Source of the DNA: an uncultured Erysipelotrichaceae bacterium
GTDB taxonomy: Bacteria; Bacillota_I; Bacilli_A; RF39; UBA660
NCBI GenBank assembly: GCA_902801825.1
Contig: CADCJS010000001.1
Span: forward strand, 40,872 to 104,871
Length of the DNA: 64,000 bases
Direction of reading: 5' to 3'
The notes below the pieces were generated by a model, which was not told where the DNA came from, searched no databases, and saw only the letters and a program-made list of their open reading frames with translations. Positions 14,531 through 47,875 of this stretch are shown here, one piece after another. Made by a program: the position numbers and the translations under genes. Each line of letters starts with the position of its first letter. The first letter of the stretch is position 1.

Positions 14531-14689
14531 TTAATATATAATATTGATTGTTGAAAAAGTTTATGTACCGAAGACAGTAAGTGTTTTTAAACTTAATATC
14601 TTACCGAGGACAATACTTATTACTTATATATAATAGGTCTTTGTTCTTAGTACAAAGACTTTTTTAATTAAACAAGCAAGGAGGAAAGT
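14531..14689 (+). promoter_or_regulatory. Ribosomal protein L10 leader with attenuator terminator
   Basis: 160-nt untranslated leader before rplJ containing ACCGAAGACAG...ACCGAGGACA elements. It ends in a GTCTTTGT/ACAAAGAC hairpin (14637-14659) plus a T-run. Confidence 0.6.
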
Positions 14690-39556: not shown

Positions 39557-39933
39557 GGGGCTATATTGGTTTTGACAATTATATGAAGTTTATAGCTGCA
39601 AGCCGGAGGAACACGTTACGAACAAAAAACAATAAATGCAAACAATTTAAAAACTGCATTTGCTTCATTATTCAGAAGTAATAGTGTAGCTTTAGCCTAG
39701 TTTAAGGTAAATGCAACTTTCTTTTATTCTTTTCCACGTGAATAAATAGAAGGGTCATTTTTAGTGGAATATATTATTATTTTGTCTAAGAATAATAACG
39801 AATATTATTAGACTTACTAATCCTTATGATTGTTAGTTATTTAACGATTAGGAAAATCTTTAACTAACTAAGCTTGTAGACGCTATCTATGAATTATGAT
39901 TGGACAGGGGTTCAACTCCCCTTAGCTCCACCA
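39557..39933 (+). ncRNA. ssrA: Transfer-messenger RNA (tmRNA, SsrA)
   Basis: The 5' GGGGCT pairs with the 3' ...AGCTCCACCA acceptor end. T-arm GGGGTTCAACTCCCC. The internal tag frame ends ...AGT GTA GCT TTA GCC TAG (39698-39700), giving a C-terminal ...NSVALA tag. The candidate resume codon is GCA at 39638, and this is uncertain. Located next to smpB. Confidence 0.92.
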
Positions 39934-41461: not shown

Positions 41462-41823
41462 ATTATATTGTATTATTATATAAGGCTGTAATTATATGAT
41501 TATTTCAAAAGAAGAACTTAAATAATTTGAGAATAACTATGAATGATATAAAAAAGCTGATGAAGGTTATAGAATTGTATATTTTTACGAAGATGGAAAT
41601 TATTATGTGGGTGCCTACTAAAAAAAATATAGAAGGTTTTATGATTGAATTTTCAAAAACAGAACCTATTGAAGATGACACTGATATACCAAAATTTATA
41701 TCAATTGCTGATTTATTAGAAAGATATTTAAAAGATTTACCTAATAAATGTAGAAGTAGCAATATATAAAACTTATGGTACAATCATTGAATCAAAAAGA
41801 AGAGATAATAATTATTTAGAATA

Positions 41824-41856
41824 AAAAACTTCAAGACTTATTTTCTTGAAGTTTTT
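41824..41856. terminator. Intrinsic terminator closing the minus-strand adhesin operon
   Basis: AAAAACTTCAAGA-N7-TCTTGAAGTTTTT. The stem includes the last codons of the 41838 gene and has T-runs on both strands. Confidence 0.7.
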
Positions 41857-42497
41857 TTATTAACTCTTTGTTTATAATATAAAATAATAAATGTTAATGT
41901 AGATATTATTAATAATCCAACGTATAAATATATATTATCACCAGTTTTAGGTTGAATTAATTGTACTTCATTTTTTTCTACAATTACTTCATCTTTATCA
42001 TATTGTGAATAGAATTCAAAATCTATATAAGAATTAGTTGTATTATTATAATTATCATAACTTGCATCTAAGTATGTTTCAACTTTCATATTACTAATTT
42101 GATTTGGTTTGATATCTAATAATTTAATCGCATTTTTTAAATTAACATCTTCATAATTATTACCTTTAATATTTCCACTATATATTAATTCATTATCTAG
42201 ATATATATTCATATCGATATAATTTAAAAAACTATCTGCTTCTTCACTTTGTTGTCTTTCTTTTATTTTAAAATATAATGTATAAGTTTTTTTAGAAGAA
42301 TTTTCTAATATTAATTTATCAGTATATATTTCTCCAGGAAGCATATCTGTATGATTCATAAATAATTCTTCATCAAAACTTTTACTATCATAATATAACT
42401 TATCATTATCTTCTATAAAATATAATCTATTATCTTTTGCATATACATTACTAATAGATATAAAAAGAATTCCTATTAATAGTAATATTTTTTTCAT
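41838..42497 (-). CDS. TasA/camelysin-like secreted protein with C-terminal sortase-type sorting signal
   Basis: Signal peptide (ISNVYA/KD). TasA-like core motif MLPGEIYTDKLILENSSKKTYTLYF. The C-terminus has QPKTGD, a 20-residue hydrophobic stretch and a KQRVNKKTSRK tail. The ATG overlaps the upstream stop (TAATG). Confidence 0.6.
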   Translation of the reverse strand: MKKILLLIGILFISISNVYAKDNRLYFIEDNDKLYYDSKSFDEELFMNHTDMLPGEIYTDKLILENSSKKTYTLYFKIKERQQSEEADSFLNYIDMNIYLDNELIYSGNIKGNNYEDVNLKNAIKLLDIKPNQISNMKVETYLDASYDNYNNTTNSYIDFEFYSQYDKDEVIVEKNEVQLIQPKTGDNIYLYVGLLIISTLTFIILYYKQRVNKKTSRK

Positions 42498-43093
42498 TAT
42501 ATACCTTCTTCCCAATCTACATTATCATTATTTATTGTTATATCTTTATCCCATATTTCTTTAACAGCATTTTTAGTTGCTTGTATGGATTCAAAATTAA
42601 ATGATAAATTATAATCATATGATTTATATTCTTGATAATATGGACTAGTTAATATTAAATTTTCATTGAGACTAATGCTTTCTAGAATTTGTACTTTTTC
42701 AGTTGGTTTTAATATTTTTTTATAATAGTACCAACCATCATTCCCTTTTTCAAAATCATTTAAGAAATCATCTGTCCACACTTTATCAACAACATTTTGA
42801 TTATTAACAATGTTACTTAATGTTAATCTTTCATTATCCACAGTTTTACTAAAACTTTCATCATAATTAATTCTTAATACAACATTTGCATTACCTGTTT
42901 CATTATTTGCAATCCAGACTTTCTTAGTACCAAATTCATCATAAAACTCTTCTTCTAATACAACATTATAAGTAGCAGCTTTAAATTTATTTGGAATAAT
43001 ATAATTAGTTTGATAAAAAGAATATACTTTTTGCATTGAGAATATTATAAAAGGGATAATTAAAATAATTGAAAATTTCCTTACTTTATTCAT
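42497..43093 (-). CDS. TasA/CalY-class secreted protein with SipW-cognate-type signal peptide
   Basis: The N-terminus KVRKFSIILIIPFIIFSMQKVYSFYQTNYIIPNKFKAATYNVVLEEEF resembles the A-Y-F-T-D...N-x-F...L-x-E signal and mature-end pattern of SipW substrates (from memory). The ATG lies 9 nt after AAGGAG and 1 nt after the upstream stop. Confidence 0.5.
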   Translation of the reverse strand: MNKVRKFSIILIIPFIIFSMQKVYSFYQTNYIIPNKFKAATYNVVLEEEFYDEFGTKKVWIANNETGNANVVLRINYDESFSKTVDNERLTLSNIVNNQNVVDKVWTDDFLNDFEKGNDGWYYYKKILKPTEKVQILESISLNENLILTSPYYQEYKSYDYNLSFNFESIQATKNAVKEIWDKDITINNDNVDWEEGI

Positions 43094-43094
43094 T

Positions 43095-46000
43095 TTAATC
43101 ATCTCCTTTAATTAAATTAACAACTCTTCCAAAGGAATGCATAAATACTTTTTTAGTAAATATATTAGTATATCTAATATTATAATTATTTCCTTGAATA
43201 ACATTTAATTCTTCTTTATCTCTTGTTATTGAACCTTCAACTTTATCTATTTCATATTCCTGTGGAACAATCTCTTCTATAGAATATTTTCCAGGATCAA
43301 CATATACATTACTACATTCTTCTTTTTTAATTGCAATATAACTCTCATACTCATTATTAGTACCTTTTATTTTAAATTGGAATGTATTATTTAAAGATAA
43401 ATTATTTACTTTTTTACAAATTGTAATTTTACTTTGTAAATTAGCTGTTGCAGTATCTTTAATATCTTCATCATCATCAAATGTAGAATCAATATCAGCT
43501 TCAGCATCTATAACTTGTACTTCATTTATTACACGATTTGTATCATTTTTAGTAACTTTATATTTAGCATATACTATAACACTTGAATTAGCACTTATAG
43601 TAGGTATATTTACTAAATAATCATTAACTATTTCATAATTAGAGTTTTCCACAAAAGAAGCATTAATAGTGTTTTCTCTAACTTTAACATTTTTTATATC
43701 ATATGATTCATTATTTGTAATTGTAATTTTATAATCAATAGTATCATTAAATCTATAGTATGGTTTATTACTAGTTATTTCTTTTGTTATAGAAGGTTTA
43801 ATTTTACCTGTAACTTTTAATATTCCATTATTATATGTAATATCATAATTATCATTACTTATAACATTACTATTATTATCAGTAATTGTTATATTTTGAA
43901 TCTCTTTTTGAGTTATTCCAATATTAGTAATACTTCCAGTAACTTCACATCCAGATAATATTTGATTTTGACCTAAAGAACTACCTAGTTTTAAAGAACA
44001 TGTATTTTGTTCAGCATTTAAAGGAGTTCCATCATATACTTTTTCTTGATTAGTAGTAGTAACTACTATTTGTCTTTTATTTATTTTTAATGTTTTATTT
44101 ATTTTAGTAATATCATAGTTGTTTGTAATATCAACATTATTAGAATCTTTAATAACAACAGTATTAATTATTTTATTCACAGGATTTCCAACGTTAGTGA
44201 TAGAACCAGTATTAGTACATGTTAATGTTTGATCATTTAATAATTCATTACTAGAACAATCATTTTCAGCATTTAAAGGAGTTCCATCATAATCTTTAAT
44301 TTGGTTAGTAGTAGTAACAGTAATAGGTTTTTTAGTAATTGTTAAAGTACCATTTGTTTTTGTTATTTCATAATTATTTGTAACATCGGTATTATTAGAA
44401 TCTTTAATAACAACAGTATCTATTATTTTATTTTCAGTTCCAACATTAGTAATAGAACCAGTATTAGTACAACTAATATTATGATTAGTTACTAAACCGT
44501 CATTAGAACAATTATTATCAGCTTCTAGTGGAGAACCATCATATACTTTTTCTTGGTTAGTAGTAGTAACGGTAATAGGTTTTTTAGTAACAGTTAATGT
44601 ACCACTAATTTTATTTATATCATAATTATTAGTAACATCGATATTATTAGAATCTTTAATAGTTACTGAAGTAATTTTATTTTCTTTTGTTCCAACTTTT
44701 GTTATTGAACCTGAATTTACAAATGTAGGGGTATGATTATCAACAAGATTATTACAAGTACCATTACTATTTAATAATGGTGTACCATCATAAACTTTAC
44801 TATCACTAGCACTTGTACAATCAATAGGTCTTGGTTCAATAGTTAAACTAGCATTATTAACTTTAATTTTATAATTTAATAATGAAATATTATTATTATT
44901 CTTCTTAATTATTAACTCATTTAAAGTTTTTTCGGTAGATCCTACATCAGTAATACTTCCATTTGTATTACATGTAGATATAGTTTGACCATTAGGTAAC
45001 TGTGTATTTTGATCTATTAAACATTCATTAGTTGAATTTAAAGGAGTTCCATCATAAATCTTACTTTGATCAGAGAGATTAATAGTTAATTCACGTTGAT
45101 AAATAATCAATTTTCCATAATTATATGATATATCATAATTATTAGTAACATCTTGTTTATTTGAATTCTTTATTACTACTGAATCTATATGATTATCAGT
45201 CATTCCATAAGGTTCAGTAATTTCTGAACTTTCTCCTGAAACATAGTTTTGTAATAATGTTAAATCATTATTATCAATACTTCCGTCAATATTTATGTCT
45301 GCATTTTTTAATAAATTTTCATCAGTTATTACTTGAATATTATTAATATGATTTGATAATATTGCAACATCTCCAGAATTAATTGATCCATCATTATTTA
45401 CGTCCCCTGGAAGAACAGTTACTTCAGTTATACTTCCTGAGTTAGTAAGTTTTGCAGTATGGTTAGGAATTAAACCTGTGCATGTTCCATTTCCATTTGT
45501 TAATGGTGAACCATCATATTTTTTTATTAATGTATTACTAGTACAAGTTAGGGCGATTGGTTTAATTGTTAGATTTCCTTTTATAATTGTTACATTATAT
45601 AAACTAGTAACATCATCATTATCTTTCATTATTTTATAATTTAGTAATTCATTATTATATGTACCAACATTTACTATATTATTATTTTCTGTATTTAATG
45701 ATGTATTACAAATTGTAAATGATGCACCTGTATCTAAATAACCTGATGTTACATTACAACTAGTATTAATATTATCATTTCTATATATAGAATTACCATC
45801 ATAATTCTTTGTATAAGAAGGAGTTTTAATTGTAATATCTTTTGTGTAAATAGCATATAGTGTTGTTGTTTCTAATGATTCATTTACATGTAATTCTTCA
45901 GCAGAAGGTATATTATATGAATCTAATAAATTATTTCCATTATATAGTTGTTCTTTACTCCAACCTATAAATTTCCAACCATTTTTATTACATTTTTTAG

Positions 46001-47753
46001 TTAAATCTACATCATCATCAACATTATAATATTGTGTAGAAATAGCTGCATTACCCTGATATCCAGTTCCACCATTAGCTGAACAGTTATAAACAACCTT
46101 TGGACTTTTAATTGTAACGGATACATTATCAGTATTTTTTGTAACTTCAGTAGCATTATTGGAATCTTTTGTAGAAGATACACTAGCGGTATTATTTATT
46201 GTGATAGGACTACTAACTGGTGTATTATAAGAAACAGGAATTTTTAAAGTATATAAATTGTTATAAGCACTGGATGTATTAAAATATTCACTTGAATTCT
46301 TATAAGAAGCAGAAACTGTATTATTTTGATTTGATATATTAAAATTATTACTTATATCATTATTATTATTATCATAGATTGTAGTTCCATCTAAAACAGT
46401 TAATCCACTATCTATAGAATCTTCAATAACTAAGTTTTTTAATTTTTCACTTGTAGAAAAATTATTATAAACAGTTGAAAAACCTAATTCATTACTATAA
46501 TAGTTATTTGGAATATATTGTTTAATATAATAGTCAAATGATTCACCGGTATAAGCATAACCATCATTTGGCATTTCATACTGATAATCTACAGATTTTT
46601 TTGGATTATCAATATTACTCATATCATAACCTTGTGGAGAAAAGAATGCAAAATCCATTCCGCAAGATACACCTGCATAATTAAATGTATACACTCCTGA
46701 TAAATCAGAGGTTAATAATTCTGCTGAAGTAGCATAATAAATTCCATTAATATTACCAGTACTAGTAATATAAGGATTTGCTGCAGCGAAAACACCATTA
46801 CCATTTTCATTATGACTTAAATATAATTCACTGCTAGATTTTGTTTTAATTTCTCCATCAGAAGAAGTAGTATAATCCCTAACCTTCATAGATTTACTAT
46901 CACTTTTATAGTATAAATTTGTATATCCACTAGTAGGATAAATACCTTCTCTTCCTTTAAAAACTGATGCATTTTCATAATATACAGGCATATCTATATC
47001 ATAATAAAAAGAATTTACTTTAGTTATATTGGTTGCAATTTCACTATTATTTAAAATTGATTGTAATCCATTAACATATTTAATACTGTTACTATCAGGT
47101 GTATAGTTTCCACCAATTTGTATATCTTTATAATAAGAAACAGTAACTTGTGCTTCTGCATATCTTGCTATTAAATCAAACTGTATAGGATCATTATAAT
47201 CTAATTTTTTATTAGTGTAATTTGTTTTTTTAGTATCTATTCGGTCTTGTGAAGAAATATGTCCATCACTATCTGAATTAAATATGTAAGGGCTTAGTGA
47301 TATTTGTATATTACTATCATTATTCCATAAACTTACAGGTGTAATACTTACAACAACATCTATTAATTCATTATTATTATCGAGTGCACAATCAGTAATA
47401 ATATATTTTATTTCTTGATTTATATTATTCATTGTGAATATTGGTGTATTAGCTGTTCCTTTAGAAGCATTTGCATTATTAAAAACATCATCTCTTATAT
47501 CAACATTAATTGAATTTGAATTTTTATATGCATATATATTTGTATTCTTAGTATAAAAAATTGTTGAATGTGAATATGTATTATCAATAAGACTTAAATC
47601 ACTCCAATTATGAAAAGTTGTTGCTTGTGAAACAGAACTTTTAAGTTTGAAGAAGTTATTAACCATACTTAAATTTGATGAAAAAGAAAGAATAAGTGTT
47701 AGTAATACCAAACAAACAAATAATAAAAATTTTCTATATTTTATATTCTTCAT
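43095..47753 (-). CDS. Giant secreted surface protein with multiple recognisable domains
   Basis: 1552 aa with the following layout:
- Signal peptide.
- About 500 aa of unassigned N-terminal region.
- Listeria-Bacteroides (Flg_new-type) repeat, aa ~551-637 (NGWKFIGWS).
- Seven ~85-aa MBG-type repeats with a K-x-YDG(T/S)PL ... GSIT-x-VG ... NNYDI ... G-x-LTI pattern, aa ~643-1317.
- Dockerin at aa 780-840.
- DUF11-like then Cna-B/SpaA-like C-terminal domains (IVPQEYEI). Confidence 0.8.
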   Translation of the reverse strand: MKNIKYRKFLLFVCLVLLTLILSFSSNLSMVNNFFKLKSSVSQATTFHNWSDLSLIDNTYSHSTIFYTKNTNIYAYKNSNSINVDIRDDVFNNANASKGTANTPIFTMNNINQEIKYIITDCALDNNNELIDVVVSITPVSLWNNDSNIQISLSPYIFNSDSDGHISSQDRIDTKKTNYTNKKLDYNDPIQFDLIARYAEAQVTVSYYKDIQIGGNYTPDSNSIKYVNGLQSILNNSEIATNITKVNSFYYDIDMPVYYENASVFKGREGIYPTSGYTNLYYKSDSKSMKVRDYTTSSDGEIKTKSSSELYLSHNENGNGVFAAANPYITSTGNINGIYYATSAELLTSDLSGVYTFNYAGVSCGMDFAFFSPQGYDMSNIDNPKKSVDYQYEMPNDGYAYTGESFDYYIKQYIPNNYYSNELGFSTVYNNFSTSEKLKNLVIEDSIDSGLTVLDGTTIYDNNNNDISNNFNISNQNNTVSASYKNSSEYFNTSSAYNNLYTLKIPVSYNTPVSSPITINNTASVSSTKDSNNATEVTKNTDNVSVTIKSPKVVYNCSANGGTGYQGNAAISTQYYNVDDDVDLTKKCNKNGWKFIGWSKEQLYNGNNLLDSYNIPSAEELHVNESLETTTLYAIYTKDITIKTPSYTKNYDGNSIYRNDNINTSCNVTSGYLDTGASFTICNTSLNTENNNIVNVGTYNNELLNYKIMKDNDDVTSLYNVTIIKGNLTIKPIALTCTSNTLIKKYDGSPLTNGNGTCTGLIPNHTAKLTNSGSITEVTVLPGDVNNDGSINSGDVAILSNHINNIQVITDENLLKNADINIDGSIDNNDLTLLQNYVSGESSEITEPYGMTDNHIDSVVIKNSNKQDVTNNYDISYNYGKLIIYQRELTINLSDQSKIYDGTPLNSTNECLIDQNTQLPNGQTISTCNTNGSITDVGSTEKTLNELIIKKNNNNISLLNYKIKVNNASLTIEPRPIDCTSASDSKVYDGTPLLNSNGTCNNLVDNHTPTFVNSGSITKVGTKENKITSVTIKDSNNIDVTNNYDINKISGTLTVTKKPITVTTTNQEKVYDGSPLEADNNCSNDGLVTNHNISCTNTGSITNVGTENKIIDTVVIKDSNNTDVTNNYEITKTNGTLTITKKPITVTTTNQIKDYDGTPLNAENDCSSNELLNDQTLTCTNTGSITNVGNPVNKIINTVVIKDSNNVDITNNYDITKINKTLKINKRQIVVTTTNQEKVYDGTPLNAEQNTCSLKLGSSLGQNQILSGCEVTGSITNIGITQKEIQNITITDNNSNVISNDNYDITYNNGILKVTGKIKPSITKEITSNKPYYRFNDTIDYKITITNNESYDIKNVKVRENTINASFVENSNYEIVNDYLVNIPTISANSSVIVYAKYKVTKNDTNRVINEVQVIDAEADIDSTFDDDEDIKDTATANLQSKITICKKVNNLSLNNTFQFKIKGTNNEYESYIAIKKEECSNVYVDPGKYSIEEIVPQEYEIDKVEGSITRDKEELNVIQGNNYNIRYTNIFTKKVFMHSFGRVVNLIKGDD
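43803..45827 (-). repeat. Tandem array of seven ~255-bp coding repeats (MBG-type domains)
   Basis: Protein repeats read directly from the translation. Repeats 5 and 6 (44579-44325 and 44324-44070) share long identical stretches, such as ITVTTTNQ, TNTGSITNVG and TVVIKDSNN. Confidence 0.8.
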
Positions 47754-47875
47754 ATTAACCTCTATTCTATATAATTATAACATAAAATATAAAAAAATAT
47801 ATATAATTATCAAAATATCTTGAAAAATAATTTTGATAATGCTAAAATTGATTTAGAATAGAAAGAGGAATGTAT

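Follow-up and report, generated by a model that had tools for sequence, protein, structure and literature searches.

Three tightly coupled minus-strand genes at positions 41838-47753 of the DNA analyzed here (64,000 nucleotides from an uncultured Erysipelotrichaceae bacterium, assembly GCA_902801825.1, contig CADCJS010000001.1; hereafter the window) form an operon for surface proteins. The first gene (g1) encodes a giant adhesin, the second (g2) a small subunit assigned to the BsaA/TasA superfamily, and the third (g3) a protein with a cell-wall sorting signal. The reading that we lean towards is that this operon encodes a cell-wall-anchored adhesin stalk, built by donor-strand complementation in the TasA/BsaA superfamily, and that it is a reduced copy of an operon that is widespread in Bacillota. 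The window has a G+C content of about 22% and covers a core part of the chromosome, from a Bacillota lineage that has a cell wall (rpoB/C, fusA, tuf, a penicillin-binding protein gene, FemAB, cdaA, and parAB). The genes and signals of the operon are the following.

43095..47753, minus strand: g1, open reading frame for a 1552-aa secreted multidomain adhesin without a sorting signal
42497..43093, minus strand: g2, 198-aa subunit assigned to the BsaA/TasA superfamily (ATG 43093-43091, MNKVRKF)
41838..42497, minus strand: g3, surface protein of 219 aa, a beta-sandwich with a cell-wall sorting signal (ATG 42497-42495, MKKILLL)
43103..43108, minus strand: Shine-Dalgarno sequence AAGGAG for g2, within the end of g1, with the g2 ATG (43093) 9 nt downstream (sequence reading)
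41823..41857, minus strand: intrinsic terminator, a 14-bp A/U-flanked hairpin plus U-run, with the g3 stop codon in the loop (RNA fold)
47754..47869, no strand assigned: divergent intergenic region of 116 nt, the presumed site of the operon promoter

The g1 stop codon (TAA, 43097-43095) is followed by one nucleotide and then by the g2 start codon at 43093, and the g2 stop and g3 start share one base (TAATG). In the mechanical list of open reading frames (ORFs), g2 begins at 43102 (MIKMNKV); this upstream ATG directly abuts AAGGAG. The predicted terminator fold has a free energy of -15.9 kcal/mol (z = -5.5), and none of 200 shuffled sequences was equally stable, although a simple terminator scan did not pick up this hairpin. 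Upstream of g1, the intergenic region contains TTGATA-16-TATATT at 47813-47786. The operon promoter in this region is presumed because promoter-type matches are no commoner in this AT-rich DNA than in shuffles (66 found vs. 74 expected). The 64-kb window contains no ORF for a sortase or an S26 signal peptidase, as judged from the ORF list and from jackhmmer searches with verified seeds, and among the window ORFs only g3 has a C-terminus resembling a sorting signal. An earlier note on this DNA, made from the sequence alone, had described the coupling of the three genes, the Shine-Dalgarno sequence inside g1, the TAATG overlap, a strong terminator, and the lack of sortase and SipW genes in the window; all of these are borne out, with the terminator now placed at 41823-41857. 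The identical triad, in the same order and context, recurs in NCBI assembly GCA_015657165.1, which confirms that the arrangement is genuine and not a product of chance. Moreover, the exact g2 protein is present on 40 contigs, and g3 variants with 86-99% identity occur in other assemblies and many metagenome contigs with the arrangement kept.

For g2, the placement in the BsaA/TasA (camelysin) superfamily is made on hidden Markov model (HMM) and profile-profile grounds, in line with the TasA/CalY-type identity that had been proposed for it. The protein scores 30.8 bits (E 2.4e-7) against the NCBIfam model TIGR04090 ("BsaA family SipW-dependent biofilm matrix protein"), under the curated cut-off of 60, and the same model is matched by all 43 aligned homologues (best 6e-18). 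A homologue search found 74 proteins, including two JGI entries called "alternate signal-mediated exported protein". The g2 family alignment (A1) matches that of the other TasA-like paralogues of these operons (A6) over 197 columns (hhalign probability 100%, E 9.5e-46). Among the A6 paralogues, 42 of 75 match the camelysin/TasA family PF12389 (best 1.5e-16), and the top two PDB matches of the A6 profile are both TasA (8aur, fibre; 5of1, monomer; E about 0.01). No Pfam family was matched by g2 itself, and a PDB sequence search with the g2 profile was empty. Two segments at the N-terminus of g2 are of particular relevance.

43019-43093, minus strand: signal peptide of g2, residues 1-25
42977-43006, minus strand: candidate donor strand of g2, NYIIPNKFKA, residues 30-39

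The AlphaFold2 (AF2) model of g2 is beta-rich, with a predicted local distance difference test (pLDDT) score of 88. Residues 30-39 are the sole segment of this model with pLDDT below 50 and without secondary structure, and N35 and F37 within it are at least 90% conserved. This disordered segment, which follows the signal peptide, is a candidate for a free N-terminal donor strand. The Asn35 that acts as donor in the isopeptide triad of BsaA is also present in g2. The signal peptide itself ends in FSMQKVYS, followed by FYQT, and the SipW-type signal model TIGR04088 is not matched by the window g2 but is matched by five of the 43 homologues.

The third protein, g3, carries a sortase-type sorting signal, with the following parts.

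42438-42497, minus strand: signal peptide of g3, residues 1-20
41937-41954, minus strand: sorting motif QPKTGD
41874-41936, minus strand: hydrophobic segment of 21 residues
41841-41873, minus strand: basic tail KQRVNKKTSRK

The protein passes the NCBIfam LPXTG_anchor model TIGR01167 (17.5 bits vs. the cut-off of 15.9). The P and T of the motif are invariant in the nine closest g3 relatives and conserved in at least 70% of the 87-sequence family alignment. Members of this family share a plan of about 214 aa, in which a classical signal peptide and a domain of about 160 aa are followed by xPxT[G/N/M/S], a transmembrane segment, and a basic tail. A first search gave 15 members, and the family comprises 814 representative clusters (50% identity) at E <= 1e-3. 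The family has no Pfam model, and a Pfam search with g3 matched no family. The model NF053819 (EF2685/EF0750) was considered as the g3 family and dropped because the match is restricted to the anchor segment.

Whether g3 also belongs to the TasA-like fold is a question on which the evidence is thinner. The AF2 model of g3 is a beta-sandwich (pLDDT 91.2, predicted template modeling score 0.80), and the whole-domain Foldseek matches include AbpA of the archaeal bundling pilus (7ueg, 3.7e-3), the thread subunit of Sulfolobus (7pnb, 6.4e-3), and TasA (5of1, 1.1e-2). These matches are weak, with template modeling (TM) scores of about 0.3-0.36, and stand among unrelated beta-sandwiches such as laccases and carbohydrate-binding modules. 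The profile of g3-like domains (A4) aligns with the TasA-like profile A6 over the N-terminal 67 columns (hhalign E 1.1e-4, probability 56%), pairing g3 FMNHTDMLPGEIYTDKLILEN with the core F..W.PG..V.K.V..NTG, and a PDB sequence search with the g3 profile was empty. In Lachnospiraceae and Oscillospiraceae, the anchor is a fusion protein of about 550 aa that unites complete TasA-like (107-165 bits) and g3-like domains with an LPKTGD motif; in addition, several proteins of 259-296 aa match the TasA-like and g3 profiles across the same region. Taken together, g3 is probably a very divergent TasA-like domain, the link being weak but consistent. The earlier description of g3 as TasA-like and sortase-anchored thus stands for the sorting signal and is probable for the fold, and the HMM and structure comparisons did not place g2 and g3 in unrelated families. 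One g3 homologue (L077/L078; 48% identical) lies alone among housekeeping genes, with no TasA-like, SipW, or sortase neighbors.

The three genes have relatives in many genomes. A synteny scan of one genome per GTDB species gave 67 loci from uncultured gut/rumen Bacilli and "Erysipelotrichaceae", Lachnospiraceae, Oscillospiraceae, and, unexpectedly, Candidatus Saccharibacteria. Same-strand neighbors were counted in the 57 distinct loci whose downstream sequence extends for at least 5 kb. A g3-family gene is present in 54 of these loci (43 of the 54 with a recognizable sorting signal), a SipW-type peptidase in 48, and a sortase in 23, so that the components are co-conserved in other genomes together with the two enzymes that are lacking in the window. 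Pfam confirmed examples of both enzymes (Peptidase_S26 at 1e-6; Sortase, PF04203, at 5.9e-21). In the closest relatives, the order is a giant protein with a VWA domain (about 1150 aa), a tail protein of about 700 aa (see below), the g2 type, a SipW-type S26 peptidase (about 172 aa), a second TasA-like protein (about 217 aa), the g3 type, and a sortase (about 200 aa). Because these relatives include SipW, a second TasA-like gene, and a sortase, the window operon is considered a reduced version, and the earlier label "self-contained" does not hold. The reduced layout without peptidase and sortase is found in the window, in L004/L019, and in L014, occurring independently in the latter two; L001 has the adhesin and g2 alone, without g3.

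Variation in the g3-type signals and in gene content is seen across the loci. In L006, L008-L011, and L017, a small sortase (192-212 aa) directly follows the g3 type, and the motif is [ST]P[ND]TM or VPNTM. The Met in place of the canonical Gly suggests a dedicated sortase of unusual specificity. The Saccharibacteria (TM7) loci L026, L029-L033, L035, and L036 have the g2 type, then a gene of about 169 aa where SipW would be expected, and after it a second TasA-like gene and the g3 type. Their g3-type signal is NP[KR]TND or APKTND, with an N-D ending instead of G; L032, L033, L035, and L036 also encode a sortase a few genes further downstream, and no tail-type adhesin lies upstream of the module. 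One metagenome-assembled genome (MAG) of an uncultured Bacilli member (CASPWD01) has at least five separate g2-type loci (L022, L024, L027, L028, and L052). The upstream proteins of four of them (L022, L024, L027, and L052) have no tail motif and have other endings, e.g., Pro-rich ones, and L028 begins at a contig edge. Finally, a 910-aa protein beside a related operon (L075, 42-2774) has strong SpaA and weak TED (thioester) Pfam matches and is a surface protein of a different, covalent-adhesion type.

The adhesin g1 has a modular plan. An N-terminal hydrophobic signal and a head of about 540 aa are accompanied by Flg_new-like and YDG repeats of about 84 aa and a dockerin module, after which a DUF11-like and a CnaB/SpaA-like domain lead up to the conserved tail. 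The ortholog in GCA_015657165.1 has 1555 aa. The features that could be placed are listed below.

45240..45410, minus strand: dockerin type I-like calcium-binding module of g1, residues 782-838 (Pfam PF00404)
44011..44661, minus strand: tandem repeats of g1, 252 nt (84 aa), 2.6 copies, a YDGTPL-type stalk (Tandem Repeats Finder)
43482..43790, minus strand: DUF11/DUF7507-like immunoglobulin-type domain of g1, about residues 1322-1424 (Pfam, sub-cut-off)
43158..43433, minus strand: last folded domain of g1, CnaB/SpaA-like, residues 1441-1532 (alignment of 25 C-termini)
43098..43157, minus strand: tail of g1, residues 1533-1552, TKKVFMHSFGRVVNLIKGDD, a conserved motif (Asn1546 codon 43116-43118)

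The dockerin match scores 47-51 bits (cut-off 22.9, E 2.8e-12) and was also called in the GCA_015657165.1 ortholog. This dockerin of a gut Bacilli adhesin sits mid-protein, and no cohesin is evident within the window. The tandem repeats have 81% matches and a score of 813. The DUF11-like domain gave E 1.1e-4 with PF01345 and 7.3e-4 with PF24346, each slightly under the cut-off; in L004, PF24346/DUF7507 is above its cut-off (32.7 vs. 27 bits) and PF01345/DUF11 below (19.5 vs. 24.6), and for P0239 a precomputed annotation gives both DUF11 and DUF7507. Other Pfam evidence includes a weak AgI_II_C2 match in g1 and a weak SpaA match (PF17802) in the equivalent of g1 in one relative. The alignment of 25 g1-type C-termini (A5) shows an invariant Glu in PQEY and a nearly invariant Asn in TN.F. 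These residues belong to a candidate intradomain triad, Lys...Glu1499...Asn1530 (KITICKK ... PQEY ... YTNIF), which resembles the triad common in CnaB domains.

No sorting signal, other anchor, or wall-binding domain is present in g1, and the earlier note was correct that the protein has no recognizable anchor, but the conserved C-terminal tail was overlooked. The motif [FY][FLM][HK][ST].[GD]...N is located at the extreme C-terminus of the protein encoded directly upstream of g2-type genes, and its Asn (Asn1546 in g1) is nearly invariant in the 25-sequence alignment. A homologue search with the C-terminal region of g1 found three proteins; the motif is present in 23 distinct Bacilli-type adhesin/g2 pairs. 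The tail is also recognizable in Hespellia, Diplocloster, Robinsoniella, Clostridium culturomicium, Gemmiger, and Oscillospiraceae MAGs, such that its conservation spans Bacilli, Lachnospiraceae, and Oscillospiraceae. The g2-type start overlaps the end of the tail-protein gene or lies 1-30 nt from it, indicating translational coupling. The L013 locus has two complete adhesin-tail/g2 pairs, and L020 has one pair plus a second tail protein broken by a contig end. The g2-type proteins paired with tails differ from tail-less ones mainly in the N-terminal region and at E65, a comparison that is confounded with phylogeny since Saccharibacteria dominate the tail-less set. We propose that the tail joins the adhesin to g2 as a plug or donor element and is likely the attachment element of g1. 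A more specific version, which we hold only tentatively, is that the tail is a previously unrecognized docking tag: a strand inserted into a dedicated TasA/BsaA-like adaptor, maybe locked through the Asn, with a sortase-anchored base that holds the adaptor on the wall.

Other C-terminal endings are also shared. A second motif, G[VI]RP[AV][IV]SL.P...Y..GDGS...PY.[VI], ends the VWA giants of about 1150 aa that precede tail proteins (L004-L011 and L014), and a similar ending, LRPV[IV]S[LV]K...G[DN]G...P[YF].[IV], closes the proteins encoded immediately ahead of the g2-type gene in two loci of Saccharibacteria (L033 and L036). The G[VI]RP-type motif may be another docking element.

In the assembly that we favor, g1, g2, and g3 would all be exported via Sec. 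The base would be g3, with its QPKTG signal cut by a sortase encoded elsewhere and then linked to peptidoglycan. After removal of the signal peptide, g2 would act as the connector, its N-terminal strand (residues about 30-39) entering the next cell-proximal subunit; the receiver would be g3 here, and further g2 or second TasA-like copies where these are present. The adhesin would form the distal tip, with the C-terminal tail bearing Asn1546 filling the open groove of the first g2. Assembly would proceed tip first and base last, which agrees with the gene order and with the published model of BsaA growth from the base. The physical contacts and their polarity, the choice between a g2 polymer and a single adaptor, the acting peptidase and sortase, and any isopeptide lock are parts of this scheme that we infer. 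Of the tip-shaft-base logic put forward previously, the protein families and the tip and base hold up, while g2 as a polymerizing shaft is conjectural; g2 may be merely an adaptor because it is always paired one-to-one with the adhesin.

Several observations weigh against this interpretation. For g2, the TIGR04090 score stays below the curated cut-off, and a Foldseek search of the g2 model against the PDB gave nothing at E < 0.05, with TasA outside the top 50. The signal peptide of g2 lacks the G-x-T-x-A-[YF]-[YF] signature that nearly all relatives keep, even in other loci without SipW in cis; this divergence possibly reflects a switch to a general signal peptidase. At position 74, which corresponds to the acceptor Lys74 of BsaA by residue numbering only, g2 has an invariant Arg, so that an isopeptide lock between g2 copies is not indicated. 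For g3, the hhalign probability and TM scores given above make for a weak link to TasA, a direct hhalign comparison of the g2 and g3 families (A1 vs. A2) found no similarity, and the monomer model packs the N-terminal strands confidently, which leaves an open groove on g3 in doubt. Finally, the window operon lacks the SipW, second TasA-like, and sortase genes of the closest full operons.

The alternative with the best claim to attention reverses the polarity, as in a TapA-like system: the N-terminal beta-hairpin of g3 (residues 24-37) would fill the groove of g2, and the g2 strand would complete the C-terminal domain and tail of the adhesin. B. subtilis TapA reportedly donates a strand to TasA and nucleates fibres, and in the hhalign comparison, g3 residues about 10-80 fall opposite the region of TasA-like proteins that comprises the signal as well as the donor and first strands. 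That g2 has a free N-terminal strand in the AF2 model is compatible with this arrangement as well. However, in the fusion proteins of about 550 aa, the g3-like domain including the hairpin (the A4 HMM starts from about residue 20) stands behind another domain, which argues that the hairpin is an internal part of the fold and not a free donor. The hairpin is also confidently packed in the monomer model (pLDDT 93-94). We therefore consider the reversed order rather unlikely. The favored polarity, with the g1 tail in the g2 groove and the g2 strand in the cell-proximal subunit, is preferred because the model leaves the donor strand of g2 free, because the g3 hairpin is internal and well packed, also in fusion proteins, and because gene order would then equal assembly order. 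A further reason is the published BsaA model. There, the oligomer exposes an N-terminal strand that enters the monomer just secreted and still tethered to the membrane, and donor strands point to the newest, cell-proximal subunit.

Alternatively, the three genes may be co-transcribed without forming a joint structure, with g1 as a released or loosely bound adhesin, g2 as a secreted matrix protein, and g3 as an independent wall protein. The solo g3 homologue without TasA-like neighbors (L077) and the adhesin and g2 without g3 in L001 are what would be expected under this scenario. Nonetheless, a g3-family gene stands beside TasA-like genes in 54 of the 57 loci, fusion proteins unite TasA-like and g3-like domains, start/stop overlaps couple the genes, and the anchorless g1 keeps a tail that is conserved across families and strictly adjoins g2-type genes. 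In view of these associations, independent action of the three proteins seems improbable.

It is also conceivable that the operon is a decaying, non-functional remnant left by the loss of SipW, the second TasA-like gene, and the sortase. These genes are indeed absent from the window, and the signal peptide of g2 no longer conforms to the SipW-type pattern. Yet, all three ORFs are intact, including a gene of 4.6 kb, and other assemblies as well as many metagenome contigs preserve this arrangement, their g3 variants being 86-99% identical. Furthermore, the reduced layout occurs independently in L004/L019 and L014, the enzymes can act in trans, and one MAG has at least five such loci. Decay is accordingly a very improbable explanation. 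A classical sortase-polymerized isopeptide pilus of the SpaA type, in which g1 would be the tip, g2 the shaft, and g3 the base pilin, would fit the gene order, the CnaB/SpaA-like last domain of g1, and the sorting signal of g3, but was rejected because g2 is TasA/BsaA-like rather than a CnaA/CnaB pilin and because g1 and g2 lack the sorting signal that polymerization requires of every subunit.

Elsewhere in the window, two ordinary RNA elements were found. About 1.3 kb downstream of smpB is a tmRNA gene (39557-39933, plus strand, 135 bits), and a ribosomal L10 leader (14550-14674, plus strand, 79 bits) lies upstream of rplJ.

A cell-wall-anchored adhesin stalk of the kind favored here bears on how TasA/BsaA-type fibres are used. 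By experiment, such fibres are known solely as released or membrane-associated biofilm matrix, and their anchoring to the wall by sortase and carriage of tip adhesins have so far been proposed only from gene neighborhoods and AlphaFold3 (AF3) models. The literature searched contains no experiment on a sortase-tethered TasA-type system. The earlier note knew of no report of such an architecture; this does not hold, as two preprints from 2025 and 2026 foresee LPXTG/sortase-anchored TasA-family fibres (PMC11580942; 10.64898/2026.01.04.697558), so that a TasA-type fibre tethered by sortase and having a tip and a base has been published as a prediction. The window operon offers a compact, well-delimited three-gene test case, with about 55 relatives, and two testable additions: a large unannotated family of anchor subunits, and an adhesin tail with a near-invariant Asn that is paired one-to-one with a TasA-like subunit. 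Our search of the literature turned up nothing on the g3 family as such, on the tail motif, or on how the latter is paired one-to-one with TasA-like proteins, and the tail and its pairing with a g2-type subunit appear to be undescribed. If the tail is a docking element, it would account for the surface retention of many giant "anchorless" adhesins of gut Bacillota and might serve as a new tag for protein ligation or display. Should the docking-tag reading be true, it would represent a third general mode of mounting large adhesins on Gram-positive surfaces, beside direct LPXTG anchoring and non-covalent wall-binding domains; it would be modular, each adhesin having its own adaptor gene, and distributed among Bacilli, Lachnospiraceae, and Oscillospiraceae.

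Among known systems, the sipW-bsaA-bsaB-bsaC and srtB genes of Clostridium perfringens are the first point of comparison. BsaA polymers are SipW-dependent and SDS (sodium dodecyl sulfate)-resistant and do not need SrtB (Obana 2020, PMC7395162). They were shown to be joined by donor-strand exchange and an N35-K74 isopeptide bond (Kivimaki 2025 preprint, PMC11580942); residues 28-38 are disordered, and their donor-strand role is modeled and supported by mutagenesis (PMC11580942). The resemblance to the window operon lies in the match of g2 to the BsaA model, the disordered N-terminal strand at the same residues, and the large accessory surface proteins (BsaC is of the VWA type, as are giants encoded in the loci related to the window). 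BsaA/TasA genes are often near LPxTG, SpaA, sortase, and signal-peptidase genes, and most C. perfringens strains have an LPXTG-bearing bsaB-like gene adjoining a sortase, for which anchoring by SrtB was called speculative (PMC11580942). However, BsaA oligomers of strain 13 are membrane-anchored and not wall-anchored (PMC11580942), being membrane-associated and released, and srtB is dispensable. Conversely, the window has neither SipW nor sortase in cis, its 1552-aa adhesin has a tail coupled to a TasA-like gene, and, compared with the N35-E56-K74 triad of BsaA, g2 has Arg in place of Lys at position 74 (by numbering only).

For tapA-sipW-tasA of B. subtilis (8aur/5of1), the likeness consists of membership in the superfamily by transitive profile evidence, the donor-strand logic, and an accessory protein at one fibre end that is associated with the cell wall. 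In contrast, similarity to TasA itself is marginal (E 0.011, paralogue profile), TapA is not sortase-anchored, no tip adhesin is involved, and TasA fibres are a matrix scaffold.

The AbpX clusters of bacteria and the archaeal ABP, thread, and Tafi pili share with the window operon a module of tip, pilin, and anchor with a dedicated signal peptidase. According to the AbpX preprint, bacterial clusters encode LPXTG-anchor proteins and sortases; the preprint also predicts tip and minor subunits and, in AF3 models, strand complementation of an LPXTG anchor protein with a fibril subunit (10.64898/2026.01.04.697558). For archaeal Tafi, TafC was proposed as the tip, TafA/E as pilins, TafF as the anchor, and TafD as the peptidase (PMC9245690, PMC12337348). 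Archaeal AbpA and the thread subunit are among the best whole-domain fold matches of g3. Nevertheless, these proteins belong to different subfamilies to which g2 and g3 have no sequence-level match, the archaeal anchors are membrane helices, and an adhesin C-terminal tail motif is described in none of the AbpX, Tafi, ABP, and thread reports. Finally, sortase pili of the SpaA/FimA type resemble the window operon in the tip-shaft-base gene logic, the CnaB/SpaA-like stalk domain of the adhesin, and the sortase-attached base. They differ in that the sorting signal here is on the base alone and in that the subunits here would be joined by strand complementation instead of Lys-Thr isopeptide bonds.

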